From positions 229,152 through 293,151 of the forward strand of contig NW_005202176.1 of the NCBI RefSeq assembly GCF_000372725.1: DNA of 64,000 nt. Reading direction: 5' to 3'. The notes below the pieces were generated by a model, which saw only the letters and a list, made by a program, of their open reading frames with translations, had not been told where the DNA came from and made no database searches. This DNA comes from Emiliania huxleyi CCMP1516 (taxonomy: Eukaryota). This document shows, piece after piece, positions 36,511 through 47,970 of this stretch. The position numbers were made by a program, and so were the translations under genes. Each line of letters starts with the position of its first letter. The first letter of the stretch is position 1.

Positions 36511-36793
36511 CCTGCACCACGCTGCCCGGCGTCTCTCACTTTCCGGGACAGCCCCGCCCTTGTGAGGCAGGAAAGTGGTGGCTACTATGTATGTAGAAAG
36601 ATGAACAACAGTCAGGCTCGGACTGGACACCAACGCGGTATGGCTACTCCGCGCACCTGAATTCTTTTTGGTAGGCTCGGCCTCGCAGCCGCTCGGTCGC
36701 GCGAGCCGTTCCGCTGTGCAACGCTCTCGATCTCTCGCGCTCTCGCTCTCGCTCTCGCTCTCTCTCTATTTACGCAGGCCACCCCTCGCGGCC

Positions 36794-38242
36794 ATGCCTC
36801 GGCCGATGTCGACCGCCGAATCGGCCTTCATCCTTCGAGCGCTCGGCGAGGGCCTCCGCGTCGACGGCCGGCGGCCGCGCGAGTCGCGGCCGCTGAGCGT
36901 GGCGTGCGGCCTGCGCGAGGGCTCCGTCGAGGTGCGGCTCGGCGAGACCAAGGTGATGGCTGCGGTCAGCGCGGAGCTGGTCGAGCCCTTTGCCGACCGG
37001 CCGACTGAGGGGCAGCTCCTCTTCTTCGTCGAGCTCTCGCCGATGGCCTCTCCGGCGTACGAGCCCGGCCGGCCGTCCGACTCCGCCGTCGAGCTCGTGC
37101 GGCTGCTCGAGCGGGCCTTCCGCAAGGCGCAGGCGGTGGACGTCGAGGCGCTCTGCATCGTCGCGGGCAAGCGCGTCTGGTCCATCCGCTGCGACGTGAC
37201 GCTCCTCGACGACCGCGGCAACGCCGCCGACGCGGCGTGCACCGCCGCGCTCGGCGCGCTGCTCCACTTTCGGCTCCCGGCGGTGAGCATCGTCGGCAGC
37301 GGGTCCGAGGCGGCGGTGAAGGTGCTCCCTCCCGAGCAGGCCGAGCCCACGAAGCTCGTCTTTCATCACATGCCTGTCTCGACCACGCTCGGCCTCTTCC
37401 GGCCGGCGGGAGGGGGCGGCGGCGGCGGCGGCGGCGGCGGGAGCGGCGGCGGCGGGGGCGGCTCCGCCGCCGTGCTGGCTGTCGACCCGACGGACCGCGA
37501 GGAGCTCGTCGAGGAGGGGCGGCTCGTGGTAGTGACAAACCAGTACGACGAGCTCTGCGCGCTGCACAAGCTCGGGGGGCTACCCGCGCACCAGGCGGGG
37601 GCGGGCTGGGCGGCGGGCGGCGGGCGCGCGGGTGCGCGGGACACGTCCGGGACGCGTCCGCCCCACGCGCCGTAGGAGACCGTCTCCGAGGCCGTGCGGC
37701 TCGCCGCGGCGCTGGCTCCGTCGCGGCTGTCTGCGGTGCAGGCGGCGATGGCGAGGCACGCGGAGGAGATGGCGGCGCGCGCTGTCGTGCTCGCCAAGAC
37801 GGGGCGGCTGCCGCAGAGGCAGGCGGCGGGCGGCGCGACCACCGTCGAGGCTGGCGCGGGACCCGCCGCCGCCGCCCCGCCCGCTGCGGGCGAGGGCGAG
37901 GGTGGCACCGGCGGCACGGGCGAGGAGGCGGCCGCCCCGCCCGCCGCGGCGGACGTCGAGATGGCGGACGGCGGTGCGGCGGCGGGAGAGGAGGAGGTGG
38001 AGGAGAGCAGCGCGGCAGCGGCGGCGGCGGCGGCGGCGGCGGAGGGAGCGTTGGGGGACAGCGACGAGGACGAGGCCGCGACCGCGACGTTAGTCTCGCC
38101 CTTTGCGGCGGGCGGGACCGCCGCGGCGGAGGCCGGGGGCGGAGCAGGGCGGGGGACGGGGGCGGTGAGCAAAGGCGCCGCCGCGCCGCCAGCGAAGAAG
38201 CGGAAGACTGGCAAGGCCGCCAAGAAGAAGGGCCGGTCCTGA
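36794..38242 (+). CDS. RRP45: Exosome complex component RRP45/EXOSC9
   Basis: GLRVDGRRPRESR..VRLGETKV..PFADRPTEG..ELSPMA..VDVEALCIVAGKRVWSIRCDV..DDRGN..HHMP..VDPTDREE; intron ~37594-37675; basic NLS tail. Confidence 0.93.
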
Positions 38243-39614
38243 GACGTAAGAGAGCAGCTCCCGCGCTCGGGGCGTCCGTGAAGGGAGAGGCGAGAGCGTG
38301 TGTGGCAGGGAGAGGAGGTACCGGGGGTGGGGACATGCTGCCAACGTGGAATACACGTGCAAACCAGCGCCTACGCATGGTGTGTGATGTGAGCAGTGCT
38401 CAAACTTTACCGGTATGGGAGTTTTTGGCTAATCAAACCCAAGGCCTGCACTACCGTATCCGTAATCAAAAACCCGAAAAAGTGGCTAGAGTGGGGTACG
38501 CGCTCGCGGGATACCAGTTCGAGTTGCCTCAACGGATCGAAATCAAAGCGAGTCGGAGCATCTGAATTTCCCCCCTTCCGGGTTGTTGCACAGTATATGG
38601 GACACGATGTCTCAAATATGAGGGGTTTTGACTCTCCTACCGGCTCGCTGAGGGCGAGGGCGGGGGTGGCGCCGGCGGCACGGGCGACGTATCGGCTCGC
38701 GAGGGTGGGGTGTGCGAGTACGAGACCGATACGTCGCAGTTCTCTTGCGTAGGCGGTTAGTCGTGCACTAACCCTGAGGATACCCTTCGGAGTCGCTCCT
38801 CATCCGAGGGTGCCTAACCATGAATACAAGGCGGTTTACGACACCGGCGGGGTGGATGACGGCCATAATCCCCGAGGGCTCCGAGGCGTTTGGGCACTTC
38901 GTGCTGATGGTTCCGGCTTTAGCCCCGGCGGCGCCGCCGGGCAAAACGAGGGCGACGTAGAAGAAGATGAACTGAACATCCTTCCGCCTGGCTGGGCGGT
39001 GTGCGATGAGCGGTGGTGGCGGCGCTCCAAGAGAGTGCGCGAGGAAGAGGGCTTGCCCCCCCCCGGCTTGCCCCCCCCCCCCCCCCCCCCCCGCCCGCCC
39101 GCCCGCCCGCAAGGCGCGAGATCCACCCTACCACCGTGACAAAACTCATCCCCAAAGTGACTCACTCAGCTGTTCCACCGCCGATCCGATGTACTTTTAG
39201 CTTAATGGGAGACAGGGGAGAGGGAGACGCGCTTTCTTGGCCCTTAGGGGCCCTACTCAGCGCAGTCTCTCTCCGATGCACCCATTTTTTGGAGACATTG
39301 ATTTTTTCTTCTTGGCCGGCGTAGCCGTAGGAAGGGCTTAGTGGCCTGCCATGTCACAGGAAGGGCTGTGGTTGCAGATTACCACCCATCACTTTGTTTT
39401 GGTATAGACTCGAGATGCTTGATTTCTTTTCTTGCTAAATTTTAAAGAAACTAACGCCGAGTTTCATCGCCCAGAAGGCCGACGGCCAAAGCTCGAGGTG
39501 TGGCTGGGCCGGTCAGTGGCGGTCAGATCGCCAGGTCGAGGGTGTGGCTGGTCAGTGGCGGTCAGATCTCGACCGCCGGGCAGAGTCGCCAGCCGCTCGC
39601 GTGCTCTTGAGGCG

Positions 39615-40941
39615 ATGCACCTGCTGTGCCACGCCCTGCTCGCGGCCGGCGCGGCCGCAAAACTGAATCTTCGCGCCGGCGGCGCCAGCTTTCCCGCCGC
39701 GATGTACCAAGACGTGAGCTTTGCCTACAGCTTCCGCAAGCCCGCGAGCGCATCGGCCGACATCTCATACCACTCAGTCGGCTCCTCGGCGGGCAAGCGA
39801 TGGATCAAGGACGGCACCCAGCGGTGCGAAGACGACGTGCGGCCGTGCGTCACGCTCGACTGGGCCGCCTCCGATTCCCTCCTCACCGAGAGCGACTACG
39901 CCGCTCAGCCGGACCTGCAGATGTTTCCGACTCTGGCCGGCGCCGTGGTGCCAATCTTCAACCTGCCGAACCACACCGAGGGCGAGGGGCAGGATTTGCT
40001 GCTGACGCCCACGCTGGTGAGCAAGATCTTCCGCGGCGCGGTCACGCGCTGGGACCATCCCGAGATTGTCTCAATCAACCCGCTCCTCGCCCTCCCCGCG
40101 GAACGGATCCTGCTCTGCGTGCGTGCGGACGGCAGCGGCACGACCGAGATCTTCAAGAAGGCCCTCTCCGCATTCGAGCAGGAGTTTAAGGAGCAGGTGG
40201 GCGCGGACAGCGGCACACGCTGGGGCCTGGCCAACGTGACGCGCCGCCGGCTCAACAGCGGCGTTGCTACCTATGTCGCCCACACGCCGTACTCGCTCGG
40301 CTATTCGGTACTCGCGGAGGCCGAGTCGGCGGGCCTCCCGTTCGCCGCGCTGCTCAAGGGAGATCACCGGGTGCGCGCGTCGCCGACCTCTGTCGCGTAC
40401 GCGCTCGCCGAGCTCGGCCTCGAGATCGGCAACGAGCGCGAGGTGCTGACTGCAGACGTCCACAACGCGCTCGGGCTGATGGCGTGGCCAATCTGCGGCT
40501 ACACCTACCTGGTCATGCGCACCAACCCGCTGCCGGCCGAGGTCCCCGGCTCGTCGCTGGAGACGCGGCGTGCGGTGGTCGACTTTTGGCGCTGGTTCTA
40601 CACGGACCCGCAGGGCGTCGTCGCACGGCTAGCCGCGAAGAATGGCTTTGCACCCCTCCCTCCTATTGTCTCGGAAAAGGTGCTGCCGTTCCTCCTCAAG
40701 AGCATCCGGTGGCAGGGCGTGCCGGTGGCCTTGCCGGAGCCCAAGCCGTCGCTGACGGTGGTTGGGCCGGTGTGGCTCTCGTCGGCGTTCGAGCAGCTTG
40801 GCATCATCTACGAGCAGGACCCGCACTCGAACGCGGAGACGAGCTACGCCGTGGTCAAGGACGGCAAGCAGGAGCTCTTCTGGCGCTGCAGCGCTCGAGC
40901 AGCGTCGGGGACGGCCTTGACAGCTTGGGGAGAGCTCGACT

Positions 40942-40982
<41 letters not shown>

Positions 40983-43900
40983 GCAGCGGCACCGTCGCCG
41001 CCACCCGCCATCGGGTCGGTGGTTGTGACGGCGGAGGCGTGGGAGGCGGTGGCGTCGGGGGACGAGGGCGTCGCGACTCTTCCGCTCGCCGCCGTCGCCA
41101 TCGGGGTTGCGTACACGCTCGTCCCGTGCCGGGCCAACCGCACCTGCGCCGACGGCGAGGGCGCCTCAGAGCCGCTCGTGCTCGACGCGTTTGCGATCGG
41201 CCGCCTCTGCTCGGGCGAGATCCGCACCTGGGACGACGACTACCTCGTCTCGCTCAACCCGTGGCTCGTCGGCGTGGGTACCGTCCCGATCGTGCTGCAG
41301 GCGGAGCCCTCGACGTCGGACACCATGGCCGCGCTGCGGGACAAGCTGCAGGCACTCGGGCAGCGGACGGAGCTCCTGACAGGATTTCTGAGTCACCATC
41401 GTCGGGACATGCTGCAGGCGCTCGGACAGCTGACGGAGCCGGACGGCGCCTTCTGCCCGGCGGCACACGTGCAGCCTTCGTCGGCGCGGGTGAGCTCCGC
41501 CGTCCTGCACGACGAGTACTCGCTCGGCATCCTCCCAGTCGGAGGCGCCGCGCCCGGAAGGCTGGGCCAGCCCGGCGACGTGCACGATGGAATGAATTGA
41601 TGAATCACTCGACATCTAGGCGCCGTGCCGCACGGTTGGGCCAGCCTGGCGACGTGCCCGCCGCCTAAGAGCGGAGAGTGGCGCTCTCTGATCTTTGACC
41701 CCGCCGCCGCAGCGGCTTGCCGCGCGCGCGCGATGCCGCCGGCAGTCGCGAACTTGCGCAGCTGCTCGCGGCCGCTGAGTGCCGACTCTGCGCGCCCCAC
41801 GGAGCCGTGCTATCCGCTCGCGGTCTTTGCGCTTCTGCTGGTCCCCACCGATTTCCGCGGCGACGAGTGCGCGGCGCTCGAGGCGGAGAGTGTGCCCAAG
41901 CAGCTCGCGCGCTACCTCGCGTGGCTGTACGGACTCGACACCGCCGACGACAGCAGCGGAGTGGCGCCGCTGCACCGCGCGCTCGCCCGCGAGTCGATGG
42001 CCTTCATGGGCCGCGAATGCGAGCTGGACGAGGCGCGGCGACGCTTCCGAGACACCACCGTCCACGATGTTGTCCCTGCTCACAATGCCTTCAGTACCAC
42101 ATCACCTCGTGCGCTGGAAGCAGCGGGCGGCATGCCCGCACCGCCACTACCCAACCCACGATGTCTCCTGGCCGGCCGCCTGCCACGCCGCAGGCGCACT
42201 TGGCCCACGAGCTGACTCGAGAGGCGCTGTACCAGCTCACGTGCGAGACATCGCCGAGAGATCAGCGAGACATCGCCGAGAGATCAGCGAGACATCGTCG
42301 AGAGATCGCCGAGAGATCGCCGAGCTGCCGAGCGACCTGCTGCCCCGCCGCACCGTTGGTGCCCTGCTTGCGCTCGTACCGCGCCGTTTTTTGCGGTCCT
42401 GCCACCATCCTCCACCAAAGGAGGCTCTCCATGCCCGCCTCTGCAGATGCGACGGCCGCTCGCTGCTCCGGCCCGACGACACGAGCGCCGAGGTTGCGAC
42501 GGGTTCGATCTTGCTGATCACGTTTAGCTCCGTGCTGGGCGCGCTGGCCACCGTCCTCCTCTTCAGCCTCGCCCTCTGCACGCGCCACCGCCGCAACATG
42601 AGTCGCCGCGCCGCCAGCCTACGCGCGTCTCGCGACCGGGCACACATGGACTTGCAGCTCGTCACCCACCGGATCAAGGCCGGGTTGCGCGTCTCCTTCG
42701 ACGCGGTGCCCAGCGCCGAGGCGCCGTCCCTCTCGATGCCGCCAGGCCCGCCGCCCGGCTAGATCTCGGCTAGCTCTCGGCGAGCTCTCGGTGGGATCTC
42801 GGCCGCATCTCGGCCGCATCTCGACCGCATCTGTTCTCGGCTGTATCTTGGCTGTATCTCGCCAGGCCCGCCTTCCGGCTCGTCTGGCTGCACGCTCGCC
42901 GACCGCGGGCACAGCGTCGGCGGCTTGGTGGCGGGATTGCGCCGCAAGACGCGCGTCGACAGCCTCCACGCGGAGGGCGCGATCTCGCTCCCCGAGATCC
43001 CGCTTGAGCTGCTGCAGCTAGTCGCCAGGGCGGTGCCTGTCGACGACGCGTTTGCGTTTGGCAGCGTCTGCACCCGCTTTCGGCGAGTCATGTGCCAGCG
43101 CGGCTCGCAGCACGCCCGCTTCCCGTGCGGTGTGCGGACGAGGCACGCGGCGGCGTGGGCGTCGGCGGCGCGCCTGGCGTGGGCACGGCAGTCAGGGTAC
43201 AAGTGGCGGGCCTCGGACGTCGCACTCTGCGCTGAGCAAGGCCGCTTCGAGGCGTCGCCGCCGTCCCTAGCCCGCCCCCTCCCGAGACCCCGCCCCCACT
43301 CACATACCCCTCCCGAGACCTTGTTTGTTCCCCCCACACCCACCCACCGCCACCAGCGCCATCATCGCCGCCACCATCGCCACCGCCACCGCCATCGCCA
43401 CCGCCATCGCCACCGCCGTCCGCACCAGGTGCTTCAGTGGGCGTGGGAGCAAGGCTGTCCGGCGGACGAGCGCACTTGCAGTGCGGCGGCGAGGGGTGGC
43501 CACCTCTCGGTGCTGCGATTTGCGCGGCAGCAGGGCTGCCCATGGGATTCGCGCACGTGCAGTGCTGCGGCGGCGGGAGGCAGGCTCGAGGTGCTGCAGT
43601 GGGCGCGGCAGCAGGGCTGCCCTTGGGACGCAGAGACGTGCAGCACGGCGGCCAGGGGTGGGCATCTGTCGGTGCTGGCTTGGGCGCGGCAGCAGGGCTG
43701 CCCTTGGGGTGCAGACACGTGCGCCGAGGCGGCGGCCGGAGGCAGGCTCGAGGTGCTGAAGTGGGTTTTGGAGCAGCGCTGCCCTTGGGACGAGCGCACT
43801 TGCAGTGCGGCGGCGAGGGGCGGCCACCTCTCGGTGCTGCAGTTTGCGCGGCAGCAGGGCTGCCGATGGGATGCGCGCACGTGCAGTGCTGCGGCGGCGG

Positions 43901-44274
43901 GAGGCAGGCTCGAGGTGCTGCAGTGGGCGCGGCAGCAGGGCTGCCCTTGGGACGCAGACACGTGCTCCGAGGCGGCGGCAGCAGGCAGGCTCGAGGTTCT
44001 CCAGTGGGCGAGGCAGCACGGGGCCCCTTGGAACGCGCTCGTGTGCATGATGGCCGCGGGAGGCGGCCACCTCTCGGTGTTGCGTTGGGCGCGCGACAAC
44101 GGATGCCACTGGACAGAGCTGACGTGCACCGCGGCCGCAGCCGGCGGGCACCTGCAGGCGCTCAAGTGGCTGCGCGAGAATGGCTGCCCGTGGGACAGGC
44201 GCGTGCCATTTCTCGACGAGCAGGCGTCTACGATCCTGTCCTTCCCTACACTGCCGCGCTTGCGGGCTGGTTGA
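39615..44274 (+). CDS. Single-pass receptor: signal peptide - PstS - degenerate PstS - TM - F-box-like - ~10 'GCPWD' ankyrin-like repeats
   Basis: GGASFP, GSSAG, WAASD, RADGSGTT, WPICGYTYL (PstS); second lobe GEIRTWDD..LNPWL; TM ~42508-42579; LPEIPLELLQLVARAV..VCTRFR; 27-aa repeats; frame-preserving introns 41545-41619 and 42746-42865. Confidence 0.8.
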
Positions 44275-44998
44275 ATGAGTGCGTGCCAGCGGTGCGGCAG
44301 AGATTGAGTTTGAGCGAATGCTGTATGCGCTTACGCACGGCGAGGGGCAAGGGCGCGGCGGGCGCGGAGGGGGGCGAGGGCGAGGAGGCGGCCGGAGAAG
44401 AGGAGGGGAGCCCGTTGGCGCGCACAACTAGACGACGGCCGCCAGAACGACATGTCGTCAGAGCCGTAGCTCCCGCGCCGACGCGCAGGTTCGTCTTCCC
44501 GACGGCGACCATCGCGCAGACTAGGCAGAGCACGGCCGACGATGAGGTAGATGAGGGGGGAGGGCTCCACCATGCACCACATGCACATGTACATGTGTCT
44601 AGTTCTCGGTCCCCTCCCGAGTCCCGAAAATGCCATTCCGATGCCGCCCTAGTGTCATTACCATTGTACACTTACTCTCTCTCTCTCACGTCTCTCTTGT
44701 ACATTTATCGGATATCGCGGCCCCGTAGTGCGTAGTAAAATGCGCAGAGCTAGAACTTCTCTTTTATCGTGCAGGGCGGGGACACATGTCCCTAAATCCC
44801 ATCTCGTCTCTGCAGAGACTGAGTTTGACCGTTTTATTATTTATTTATTTCTTTTTCGCTCCCGAAGAGTCCCGTACGGCGTACGGCTTTATCGATATGC
44901 GATATCGTGTCGTGTGCGCACTCGGTGAAATATGCGTGGGTCGTGCTAGGCTAATTACCTCCCTACGATACCTTACCTAAATCGCCGCCGCAGGTGCG

Positions 44999-47970
44999 TC
45001 ATGACGTTTCACGCGCCTCCGCCTCGGCCGCCGCCTCAGCCACCGCCTCCCGCAGTTGGGCCGCATGGTCGGCAGCGAGCCGCGCCCCGGTCTCCGTCGC
45101 AACACTCTCCGACGTGCCTTCTCCCGCCGTTGCGGACGAAGAAGACCTCCGCCGTACTGGATCGATGCCTAGCCTGCGCTCCCTCGAGCCGTGGGGACTA
45201 GACACGGCAGGCGTAGGAAACACGCAACGCTTGCCCAGCCGCGCGCACCGGAGGCAAGGCTCGTCCTCGCTGTAGTACTCGCATGCAGTCTTGGACCTAC
45301 GCGCGCCACGGGCGATTTGCGGAAGCTGTGGAAGCGATGCTTGGCCGCCCCTTCACGGGCGAAATGGTGGGGGGTGGCTGACGCGATGCAGCGTGGCATA
45401 TCTCTGCCCCCCCCCCCCCAAAACCCACGGGACTTGCAGCGCCTGTGGCACTCGGTACAAGCCCGCTTCCGCCGTCGCAGCGCGATGGCGCTGCCAGCGC
45501 TGCCAGCGCGACCCAAGCCGCCAACGCCACCTCCGCAGCCCGCGCCACCCGAGATGATGGCGCCGCCTGCGCCGCCCAAACCGCCTAAGCCGCCGCCCAA
45601 GCCACCGACCTCGCCGTCGTCCACCGGCACCGGCATCAACGCGCCACCCGCCACCGCTCCGCCCCGCGCAAACGCGCCCCCGAACGCGCCGCCGCACTCG
45701 CCACTTGGCTCGGCGAACGCGACCTCCTAAGAAGCTCACGACTCTCGCGGCGTGAGGTGTCTTCTCGGCAGATCGCCGCGCGACGAGCCGAGCACGTGAG
45801 ACGCCTCCGCCCACGCGAAGGCGTCCTCCCCACCCGCCGCCCCATCGGCCTCGGCCGTCCGGGCTGTTGTGCTCAGGCCGTCGCACTGATTCGGCTCGGC
45901 GGCCGGGGCGCCTCGGGGGGGGGGGGGGGGGCGGGGGCGTGTGGGTAGGGGGAGTGCGACCCGAAACAGAATTGAGTACATCTTATCATACCTTGGTGCG
46001 AGCTGCTGCTTTGCATGGCCGGCGGCGTGCAGCATCGTTTCCGCAGCAGCTTCCCAAAGAGTGACCTATACACTGGGGGAAGACGTGTGACCGCGGCTCT
46101 CCGCAGGGTGGACGTCGCCCTCTCCTCTCGCCCGACCGGTCGCCGCCGGTGGCGTTCGCGTCGACAAAGCGCGCCAAGACCGGCTCGATGCGGAAGCTGG
46201 CAGGGTCCAGCTCGGTCTCCTGCGAGATGAAGCATAGGCGGGGCGGAGGTAGTGCGGCGGGGGAGGTGGAGTGGGGCTTGGATCAAGCGATGAGGGAGGG
46301 CGTAGAGGTGGCTGTGAGACTGGCTGTGGAGGGGACGGCTGGCCGGTGAGGCTCTGCTCTCTCTGAGTGTGGGCGACGATGATCATGCCGATGGTGCGAG
46401 TGGATGCCATCTTAGGGTGCGGGGGTAGGAGGAGGGGAATGAAACCTGATGCGGCTATGCAAAGAGGCATCGGAAGGCGGTGGGCGCTAGTTGGGCGCGG
46501 CGTGCTCTCCTGGCTGCAGAGCGGGCACTTGTTGAGCCGGGCGCGCGAGAGGCAGCTGTAGCAGAAACGATGGGCGCAAGAGAGCACGACCTGTGCTCAC
46601 GGCGCAGTGGCTGTGGGCGCGCACCCTTGCTCCGCACCGGGGCGAGGGGCGCGGCGGGGAAGGATGAGGGGGGGGGGGGGGGGTAGAGGCGGGAGGGCGG
46701 CACGCCGGCAAACTCAGCTTGCCCATGCAACTACTACACTCCGGGCCCTGACACCACAGACACCGGGTGAGTGACGGCTGATCTTGGCGGATCGGAGCTG
46801 GGCGGCAGCTGCAATCCGCCGAGGACTCGACGGCAGTGGCTCCGACAGCAGCGCAGACGACCTGCTCACATCGCGACGGCCTTTGGTCCGGGGATGTGGT
46901 ATTCACGGTGCACCAGTCAGAGCGGACGACGCGCGTCCGCGGCGACGCCTTCGGCTTGCGCAAGGGAGGCGGCGAGGAGGCGCGACTGGCAGATGGAGAG
47001 CGAGCCTGTCCGCAGCAGAGCATGTGAGGCGAGGAGCGAGTGGCGCCGAGCCAGACGGCGGGGGAGGGCGATGTCCGATAAAGCTCATCACAGAGTCACC
47101 GATCAAGATTGGCGAGTGGCGGTCGTGCTTTTGCACGAGCTTTGTCGCGGCGAGCAGGTTGAGCAACGCGTAGGTGCGCAGCGCGTCCACCTCCTCGCAC
47201 AAGCGCACGAACGCGCCCACGGCCTCGAGCTTGTCCCTTGCCACCTGGCGGAGTGTTGAGCCGAGGTGGCGCGCAGCGGGACGGCGAATGTGGGGAATTG
47301 GGCGGGGCGCCCCGGCGGCGAGTGGCGGCGGCGGCGGCTGGCGGAGGGTGGGGATATCACGTGCGCTCTCGCTCGTTGTGGTGGCCCTCGCCCCCTGCAG
47401 CAGCGGCAGCAGCGTCCCCAGCGAGACAGTCCCAAACGCCTCGACCCGGCCGCACACCCACCGGCGCGGCTCGTGCAGCAGGGCGGTGAGCGCCTCCAGC
47501 CGGGTGCACAGCTCCGCCTCCATGCTCTTCATAAGGTTGTTCACCTGCGGGAGATATACACGTTTTGCCGTTTGTCGGGCTAGCTCCCAGAGGGAGAGAG
47601 GAGCTCATGCTTGTATTGAGGGCTAGAATCGCCGTACGCGAAGAGGCCGGACCTCTCAGACCCCTTGAGGCGTTGGATGCGTCTCGCACAGCACAAGGGG
47701 CATCGCGGCTCTCCTCGCTTTCGCCGCCTCTGTGGGATGGAACGCTGGAGCCTTGGGGCATAGAGGATAGCCGCACGCCTGGTTGATCGCCGAGAGCAGC
47801 TGTGTGAGGAAGATGCCCTCTATCGCCGAATGGCTGTCGCTGTCCGGATCCAACCGACGCAGCGTCTGCTTGAGCTGATCGTACGGTATGAGCTTGGTAG
47901 CGAGGCGTGGGTGGCTCGCGGCGGTCAGCTTGTCGCCATACAGCACGGGGGGGCGGTCAAAAGACACCAT
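44999..47970 (-). CDS. SPX - RING(C3HC4) - Zn(II)2Cys6 protein (multi-exon)
   Basis: IPYDQLKQ..LRTYALLNLLAATKLVQKHDR (SPX); CSSC..LSCAHRFCYSCL..CPLC (RING); KRACTECHR|SKTACEYYSEDEPCLRCARLGKRC joined across GC-AG intron 45297-45442. Confidence 0.8.

Follow-up and report, generated by a model that had tools for sequence, protein, structure and literature searches.

A candidate phosphate receptor with a predicted cytoplasmic F-box-like and ankyrin tail in Emiliania huxleyi CCMP1516

The gene at positions 39615 to 44274 of a 64,000-nucleotide stretch of Emiliania huxleyi CCMP1516 DNA (contig NW_005202176.1, positions 229,152 to 293,151 of the forward strand; hereafter the window) encodes a protein in which two PstS-like domains, a single predicted transmembrane helix, an F-box-like segment and a set of ankyrin repeats follow one another. 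This order of parts is established in one reading frame and in two genes, the second being a metagenome locus that we call L001. We read the product as a phosphate receptor, with the predicted phosphate-binding PstS outside and the F-box and ankyrin repeats inside, in which phosphate would likely switch the ubiquitin tagging of targets near the membrane, and we give this reading about an even chance (roughly 0.5).

The DNA here is eukaryotic, with a G+C content of about 68-72%, and an unspliced reading of it yields several frames interrupted by stops. Splicing was mapped by comparing positions 39000-45000 with contigs from four public runs (four studies) out of 14 runs containing the region; all of these runs are only guessed to be RNA, and none is on record as RNA. 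The contigs skip six segments, of which five end in GC-AG and one in GT-AG. Five of the six joints occur in all four runs, and that of intron 5, which separates the transmembrane helix from the F-box, occurs in three, in each of which individual contigs extend 255 letters or more to either side of it. Removal of the six introns leaves a frame of 3855 nucleotides and 1284 residues with no internal stop, and the protein would be truncated if intron 2, 3, 4 or 5 were retained. A database protein encoded on a single contig of 2194 bp, P0015, extends from residue 667, at the end of the second PstS-like domain, to the C-terminus with introns 3-6 spliced out; it is shorter than the window protein by 108 residues (four repeats), which may reflect an allele or an assembly collapse. 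The initial annotation, made from the letters of the window, had proposed this order of domains in one frame, and it is borne out by the spliced contigs, the stop-free translation, P0015 and L001. The 120-bp GC-AG intron that it placed at 42746-42865 is the one spliced in three of the four runs, and it is one of six introns rather than the only one.

Some features of the splice map stand apart from this gene model. The joints 41066-41695 and 43170-44351, with a short side of 23-24 letters and non-canonical ends, were seen in two of the four runs; these two and the joint 43415-43377 were discounted as probably due to repeats or to matches with foreign sequence. The contigs are cut at a GAC repeat (40935-41006), which the unspliced database fragments P0206, P0208 and P0212 traverse in frame. 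Introns 1, 2 and 5 each open with a copy of the following exon (17, 11 and 14 of the first 20 nucleotides, ungapped) and are the top three for such a match among 26 AG/GY site pairs (mean 7.9); because of these copies and their absence from L001, they look as if they were gained through tandem duplication of an AG/GC site.

L001 was found by scanning metagenome contigs with a related protein, P0024, and is the one locus obtained from 129 candidate stretches. It has the same layout and an intact frame of 1284 residues, with 74% identity to the window protein over 1203 aligned residues and a synonymous divergence (dS) of 0.57. The two genes have introns 3 and 6 in common; L001 reads straight through window introns 1, 2, 4 and 5 and has three extra introns. 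Its transmembrane helix, linker and F-box all lie within one exon, and the fusion is therefore independent of intron 5. By pairwise counting, the ratio of nonsynonymous to synonymous divergence (dN/dS) between the two genes is 0.28 for the first PstS domain, 0.46 for the second, 0.23 for the transmembrane and juxtamembrane part, 0.21 for the linker, 0.21 for the F-box, 0.35 for the segment after the F-box and 0.27 for the ankyrin repeats. At the level of sequence comparison, these ratios show that purifying selection maintains the fusion in both genes.

Domain 1 of the ectodomain carries the motifs GASFP, GSS, ASD and RADGSGT, scores 72.9 bits against Pfam PBP_like_2 (cut-off 27; E 4.6e-20) and matches 19 PDB sequences, every one of them named a phosphate-binding protein (best E 5e-33). 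According to the available text of one paper, the ligands in E. coli PstS are Thr10, Phe11, Ser38, Asp56, Arg135, Ser139, Gly140 and Thr141 (PMC6549937), a set to which we added Asp137 from PDB titles. All nine positions align with solved PstS, as the motifs singled out by the initial annotation had implied: T10 corresponds to S25, F11 to F26, S38 to S57, D56 to D87, R135 to R170, D137 to D172, S139 to S174, G140 to G175 and T141 to T176, the serine at Thr10 being the single substitution. The nine residues are identical in the window protein, in L001 and in P0001, a 56%-identical homologue on which, rather than on the window protein, the ectodomain model was built. That model (mean predicted local distance difference test, pLDDT, of 83; predicted template-modelling score, pTM, of 0.79) finds its best matches in E. 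coli PstS, with a template-modelling score of 0.89 on the target and 26-27% identity to solved PstS. An intact phosphate site in domain 1, as judged by sequence, is thus supported, and phosphate binding is predicted.

Domain 2 duplicates domain 1 over its full length: HHalign, run with profiles from 36 members of the family, aligns the two over 325 columns at a probability of 99.9%, and the P0001 model shows the same order of helices and strands. Its ligand positions are not kept and all of the motifs are replaced, which agrees with the loss of motifs first noted for this lobe. A GAC microsatellite (40950-40981) encodes a poly-Asp loop in domain 2 that is absent from L001 and P0001 and that varies in frame, in both length and composition, among database copies.

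Residues 796-820 form the sole strongly hydrophobic segment of the protein (peak 2.42), lesser peaks of 1.55-1.93 falling inside the PstS folds, so that the one transmembrane helix proposed at the outset stands; no 7tm_3 match was found among the open reading frames scanned. Lysine and arginine account for six of the 15 residues after this segment and for one of the 15 before it. A type I topology, with the PstS side outer and the tail side cytoplasmic, is likely from these sequence features. In the P0015 model, the transmembrane helix and about 35 residues beyond it make one long helix. The juxtamembrane part is the best-conserved cytoplasmic stretch, with 28 of 32 residues identical to the L001-type protein. 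A search with the transmembrane and juxtamembrane part returned no usable match among Atlas clusters.

The P0015 model places three short helices (block pLDDT 71-83), which make up the F-box-like segment, ahead of the repeats, that is, a three-helix motif N-terminal to a repeat of the substrate-binding type. Related repeats with the GCPW motif occur at 40 viral loci; among 22 viral N-termini chosen from these, 11 pass the Pfam F-box cut-off, five more match at E <=0.1 and six have no match. Since 16 of the 22 match at that level, the slot preceding the repeats is one that holds an F-box in the GCPW-repeat family. Against a profile of the 11 viral F-boxes the real tail reaches 15.8 bits and the best of 1000 shuffles 8.9 bits, and the Atlas neighbours of the tail are algal and giant-virus ankyrin clusters, one of which has an F-box on 21% of its members. 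An F-box profile built from two sequences found no PDB sequence at E <=10, and searches by shared words turned up just two and five proteins related to the F-box region.

The segment was also co-folded with Skp1, for which a stand-in from a viral-collection contig (L056; Pfam Skp1 E 1e-29) was used instead of the host's own. The predicted complex scored 0.76 against 0.12 for the best of three controls, with at least 85% contact agreement across runs, a partner pLDDT of at least 73 and contacts located on the F-box helices. The mark applied is attained by 51 of 78 solved complexes and by 2 of 108 mismatched pairs (71 of 105 and 2 of 126, respectively, for eukaryotes) and, because F-box-Skp1 structures have been solved, a pass speaks for likeness, possibly through memory of those complexes, and not for binding. 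Skp1 was sought in eight virus records, which gave one weak match that was not Skp1.

The repeats that follow have a period of exactly 27 residues, not 33, which recurs ten times between residues 1012 and 1255, so that the approximate count of ten given initially proves exact. They score 75.9 bits against Pfam Ank_4 (cut-off 22.7; E 2e-21) and are modelled in P0015 with pLDDT above 90. Their best fold matches are of the ankyrin type: 6ndz (Z 17.8, root-mean-square deviation 3.1, 160 residues aligned) and 4o60 (Z 17.7, root-mean-square deviation 4.0, 187 aligned). Pentatricopeptide-repeat proteins, at the top in Foldseek, were rejected in favour of ankyrin at root-mean-square deviations of 9-14. 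The fold searches, made with the 510-residue model, were dominated by the repeats and are uninformative on the F-box. The coordinates of the gene and its parts are collected in Table 1.

Table 1. Features of the receptor gene; positions are those of the window, residues those of the 1284-residue product.
Feature	Positions	Strand	Description	Basis
Complete gene	39615-44274	+	7 exons, product of 1284 residues	splice joints and stop-free translation
Exons	39615-41351, 41418-41544, 41620-42032, 42194-42240, 42447-42745, 42866-43251, 43429-44274	+		
Intron 1	41352-41417	+	GC-AG, 66 nt	joint in 4/4 runs; L001 lacks intron 1
Intron 2	41545-41619	+	GC-AG, 75 nt; takes out stops 41598 and 41601	joint in 4/4 runs
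Intron 3	42033-42193	+	GC-AG, 161 nt; same position in L001	joint in 4/4 runs
Intron 4	42241-42446	+	GT-AG, 206 nt	joint in 4/4 runs
Intron 5	42746-42865	+	GC-AG, 120 nt; takes out stop 42760	main joint in 3/4 runs
Intron 6	43252-43428	+	GC-AG, 177 nt, in frame; same position in L001	joint in 4/4 runs
Predicted short signal peptide	39615-39659	+	residues 1-15	judged by eye from sequence
PstS domain 1	39660-40730	+	residues 16-372	nine phosphate-site residues; E. coli PstS as best match of the P0001 model
Degenerate PstS-like domain 2	40731-42477	+	residues 373-785, exons 1-5; poly-Asp insert	phosphate motifs absent
Predicted transmembrane helix (single)	42508-42582	+	residues 796-820	hydropathy, charge bias, helix in model
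Juxtamembrane helix	42583-42678	+	residues 821-852; extends the transmembrane helix	also present in P0001
F-box-like segment	42982-43098	+	residues 914-952	Pfam F-box E 0.003; family profile; three helices; Skp1 co-fold
Ten GCPW-type ankyrin repeats of 27 residues	43429-44205	+	residues 1004-1262	Pfam Ank_4; spacing; fold matches

The ectodomain belongs to a large family of eukaryotic receptors, which the initial annotation had overlooked. Residues 1-579 were searched against 1.84 billion representatives, which gave 5225 matches at E <=0.001, and the best 150 of these were examined, all 91 with at least 700 residues being scanned against Pfam. Among these 91 long homologues, 45 carry the class C seven-transmembrane domain 7tm_3 (44 above the cut-off, and one also with RGS and G-alpha) and ten an adenylate or guanylate cyclase (three with a kinase-like domain). 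Single proteins have a phosphodiesterase, PARP with WWE, a glutaminase, MHYT, RGS with no 7tm_3 match, or a weak MPN-associated match; two have weak TRP-like matches, and the remainder have no recognised output domain. An F-box or ankyrin domain was found in none of the 91, and the GCPW motif in none of the best 150; the cluster of the window protein itself is probably hidden beneath P0001 at 50% clustering. All nine site positions are kept in 66 of the 108 homologues aligned across them and at least one is changed in the other 42, a count that leaves out the 42 of the best 150 not aligned over all nine. Members with a named source come from Heterosigma, Palpitomonas, Mucochytrium, Tetraselmis, Chromosphaera and two gastropods. 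In a tree of domain 1 (118 sequences, 315 columns, matches covering fewer than 270 residues excluded), the window gene and L001 group in one clade with P0001 at support 1.0 and pair with each other at 0.82. Because the deep support of this tree is weak, we claim neither a donor nor an order of fusion. The F-box-ankyrin tail is a local variant within the ectodomain family.

Two groups of relatives merit mention in their own right. P0012, P0013 and P0196 (two of them named from gastropods) are receptor guanylate cyclases with a single PstS ectodomain, P0012 and P0196 retaining all nine phosphate-site positions, and the three may be taken as candidate animal phosphate receptors. The tandem-PstS membrane proteins P0090, P0167, P0077 and P0184 have odd architectures, ending in PARP with WWE, a glutaminase, a phosphodiesterase, or a 7TM-RGS-G-alpha module.

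The receptor could work as follows. First, domain 1 would close on inorganic phosphate, as its nine conserved positions and its fold suggest, while domain 2, the site of which is lost throughout the family, may serve as a stalk or a dimer contact. Second, closure could be relayed through the transmembrane helix and the conserved juxtamembrane helix as altered pairing, clustering or trafficking of receptors; because a disordered linker of about 60 residues then parts the membrane helix from the F-box, a push on the F-box by rigid or direct allostery is unlikely. Finally, the F-box is predicted to recruit Skp1, Cullin1 and Rbx1, and the ankyrin repeats to present the substrate; at a guess, substrates could be membrane proteins of phosphate uptake or phosphate signalling that are removed when phosphate is plentiful. 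That ligand and F-box are coupled at all we infer by analogy, since the relatives carry signalling outputs and the juxtamembrane helix is conserved. A broader proposal, to which we give somewhat less than an even chance, is that the protein is a receptor-SCF (Skp1-Cullin1-F-box), in which extracellular phosphate switches a cullin ubiquitin ligase across the membrane within one polypeptide, and that it represents one of the outputs in a wide and hardly described eukaryotic family of phosphate receptors, with tandem PstS joined to a class C G-protein-coupled receptor, cyclase, phosphodiesterase, PARP or F-box, that extends from algae to molluscs and would constitute the external phosphate sensors still to be found in many eukaryotes.

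Several observations weigh against the phosphate-receptor reading. The linker (residues 853-913, some 58-60 residues between the membrane helix and the F-box) is predicted to be disordered, with pLDDT below 50. The segment proposed initially as F-box-like does have three helices and a predicted Skp1 co-fold of 0.76, but it lies under the curated Pfam cut-offs, at 17.8 versus 20.5 bits for F-box (E 0.003) and 16.6 versus 24.3 for F-box-like, as does that of L001 (15.1 versus 20.5 bits for F-box, 13.6 for F-box-like). Nor does constraint single out the F-box, because dN/dS is equally 0.21 in the linker. P0001 retains the ectodomain, the transmembrane helix and the juxtamembrane helix, and its tail has no Pfam domain; since the tails differ, the ectodomain does not require an F-box-ankyrin output, and tails have been swapped on a stable sensor. 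The long contig pieces start at 39491-39510, the first ATG downstream of which is taken as the start codon, and end at 44679-44795, and none among those listed covers the full gene. Transcripts ending near 42762 would, as the initial annotation itself held, speak against the fusion: intron 5 is spliced in three of the four runs, and in the fourth, X1, its main joint is absent from the table and a joint from a GT donor at 42791 is present instead, which preserves the stop and gives a tailless receptor of 879 residues. One contig, moreover, covers part of intron 4 and continues into exon 5; were intron 4 retained, an 866-residue form lacking the transmembrane helix would result. Together with the donor at 42791, this contig gives signs of isoforms, namely a soluble ectodomain and a tailless receptor.

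Part of this evidence could also be explained if the two ends of the protein were uncoupled. The protein would then capture phosphate at the membrane and carry an acquired tail, which would act as a constitutive tethered SCF adaptor or control the turnover of the protein itself. Such a view, which we consider unlikely, is favoured by the disordered linker, by the exchange of tails between P0001 and the window protein and by the commonness of F-box-GCPW modules across giant viruses and green algae; fusions of a PBP domain with a seven-transmembrane part in Plasmodiophora have likewise been interpreted as transporters by those who described them, as far as the available text goes (PMC4815078). 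It leaves unexplained why the juxtamembrane helix should be the best-kept cytoplasmic stretch, why relatives place enzymes and G-protein modules at the position of the tail, and why the fusion is under purifying selection in two genes. Alternatively, the sensor may be coupled but face an internal lumen, such as a vacuole or an acidocalcisome-like store, and so read stored phosphate rather than that of seawater. Type I topology is compatible with either location, and polyphosphate stores are established in algae; many of the relatives, however, are class C receptor-like or receptor-cyclase-like, and proteins of these kinds usually act at the cell surface, so that an internal location seems to us improbable. 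Less probable again is a ligand other than phosphate, either a related anion or a phosphate ester, which would make the protein a receptor for another cue. The P0001 model is just 26-27% identical to solved PstS and the family drifts, with at least one site position changed in 42 of 108 aligned homologues, but the nine positions, the equivalents of Asp56 and Asp137 among them, are intact in the window protein, L001 and P0001. The last alternative is that the ankyrin repeats are encoded by a gene of their own, or that guessing an intron produced a spurious fusion. It can appeal to the stop at 42760 in the unspliced frame, the stop-retaining joint of one run and the want of a listed contig piece covering the full gene, but is largely refuted by the single contigs that bridge intron 5 in three of four runs, by P0015 with introns 3-6 spliced and by the single exon that holds the transmembrane helix and F-box of L001.

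The surroundings of the gene are of some interest. A probable SPX-RING gene lies on the minus strand at about 46069-47970, 2-4 kb downstream of the receptor gene (SPX E 0.007, a weak match; RING to E 3e-5), in a layout which we take to be that of the plant NLA-type phosphate-related E3 ligases. Because the neighbour of L001 differs, as far as its contig reaches, and the SPX match is weak, this proximity is not counted as evidence. A fungal-type Zn2Cys6 cluster spread over two frames (about 45002-45726, minus strand; Zn_clus E 0.001) may be a separate transcription factor or a piece of the SPX-RING gene. Upstream of the receptor gene lies a gene for an RNase PH exosome subunit (36605-37675, plus strand; E 1e-27), and upstream of the L001 gene one for a peptidase C69 (secernin-like; L001 107-2400).

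A fusion of PstS, F-box and ankyrin repeats was not found in the literature searched, whose coverage excludes most subscription papers, and the available text of PMC12716839 and PMC11217555 has nothing on such receptors. To this extent the architecture is undescribed, as the initial annotation supposed; the ectodomain family itself, however, is partly in print (PMC3251606; PMC4815078). Of particular interest are the proposed wiring of a receptor to SCF and the breadth of receptors with an intact phosphate site; every part, and fusions of PBP domains to receptors, were already known. The sensing of external phosphate by eukaryotes is largely an open question, for which the window protein offers a concrete candidate, with a defined predicted site whose residues can be mutated and an output that is likewise defined. 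In the accessible portion of a 2024 review, local extracellular phosphate sensing in plants is ascribed to "yet unknown processes (involving proteolysis)" (PMC11528361), and what SPX does in phytoplankton is described, in the text available to us, as largely uncharacterised (PMC5513979). If our reading is true, a membrane receptor with an SCF-adaptor output would link a small molecule outside the cell to ubiquitination in a way that is new, and could provide a template for engineered phosphate switches.

In comparison with known systems, domain 1 has the fold (template-modelling score 0.89, via P0001) and the site positions of bacterial PstS (E. coli 1IXH and 1A54); the window protein differs in that the domain is duplicated, with a degenerate second copy, and that a spliced eukaryotic gene joins it to a transmembrane helix and an output in the cytoplasm. 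The PBP_like_2-7tm_3 proteins, a layout found in 45 of the 91 long homologues, likewise place a PstS-type ectodomain on a eukaryotic membrane protein but have seven transmembrane helices where the window protein has one and an F-box-ankyrin output. Judging from the available parts of the two papers, a protein of the chytrid Spizellomyces, SPPG_06488, was noted to carry PBP_like_2 on a class C receptor (PMC3251606) and PBP-7TM proteins of Plasmodiophora were called transporters (PMC4815078); the proteins were annotated or called transporters, and were not tested as phosphate receptors. Ankyrin proteins of chloroviruses bind the Skp1 of divergent species, and in A682L and A607R the Skp1-binding motif is C-terminal, according to the text available (PMC7019647), whereas the F-box of the window protein precedes the repeats. 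In this respect it resembles the F-box and GCPW-ankyrin proteins of giant viruses and algae, which have 27-residue GCPW repeats up to 64% identical, with the F-box ahead of them, but the viral GCPW open reading frames listed have no receptor part upstream. The transmembrane E3 ligases ZNRF3 and RNF43 combine a ligand-binding ectodomain, one transmembrane helix and a cytoplasmic ubiquitin-ligase output, with a RING domain and a protein ligand. They are the closest working analogy, with no claim of homology, the window protein having instead a cullin-ligase adaptor and, by prediction, a small anion as its ligand. TIR1 and COI1 are soluble F-box proteins in which a small ligand, bound at the substrate site, controls SCF, and Legionella AnkB brings an F-box and ankyrin repeats to the membrane by a lipid anchor and has no sensor. 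Unlike TIR1, COI1 and AnkB, the window protein would hold its ligand site and its F-box on opposite sides of the membrane.

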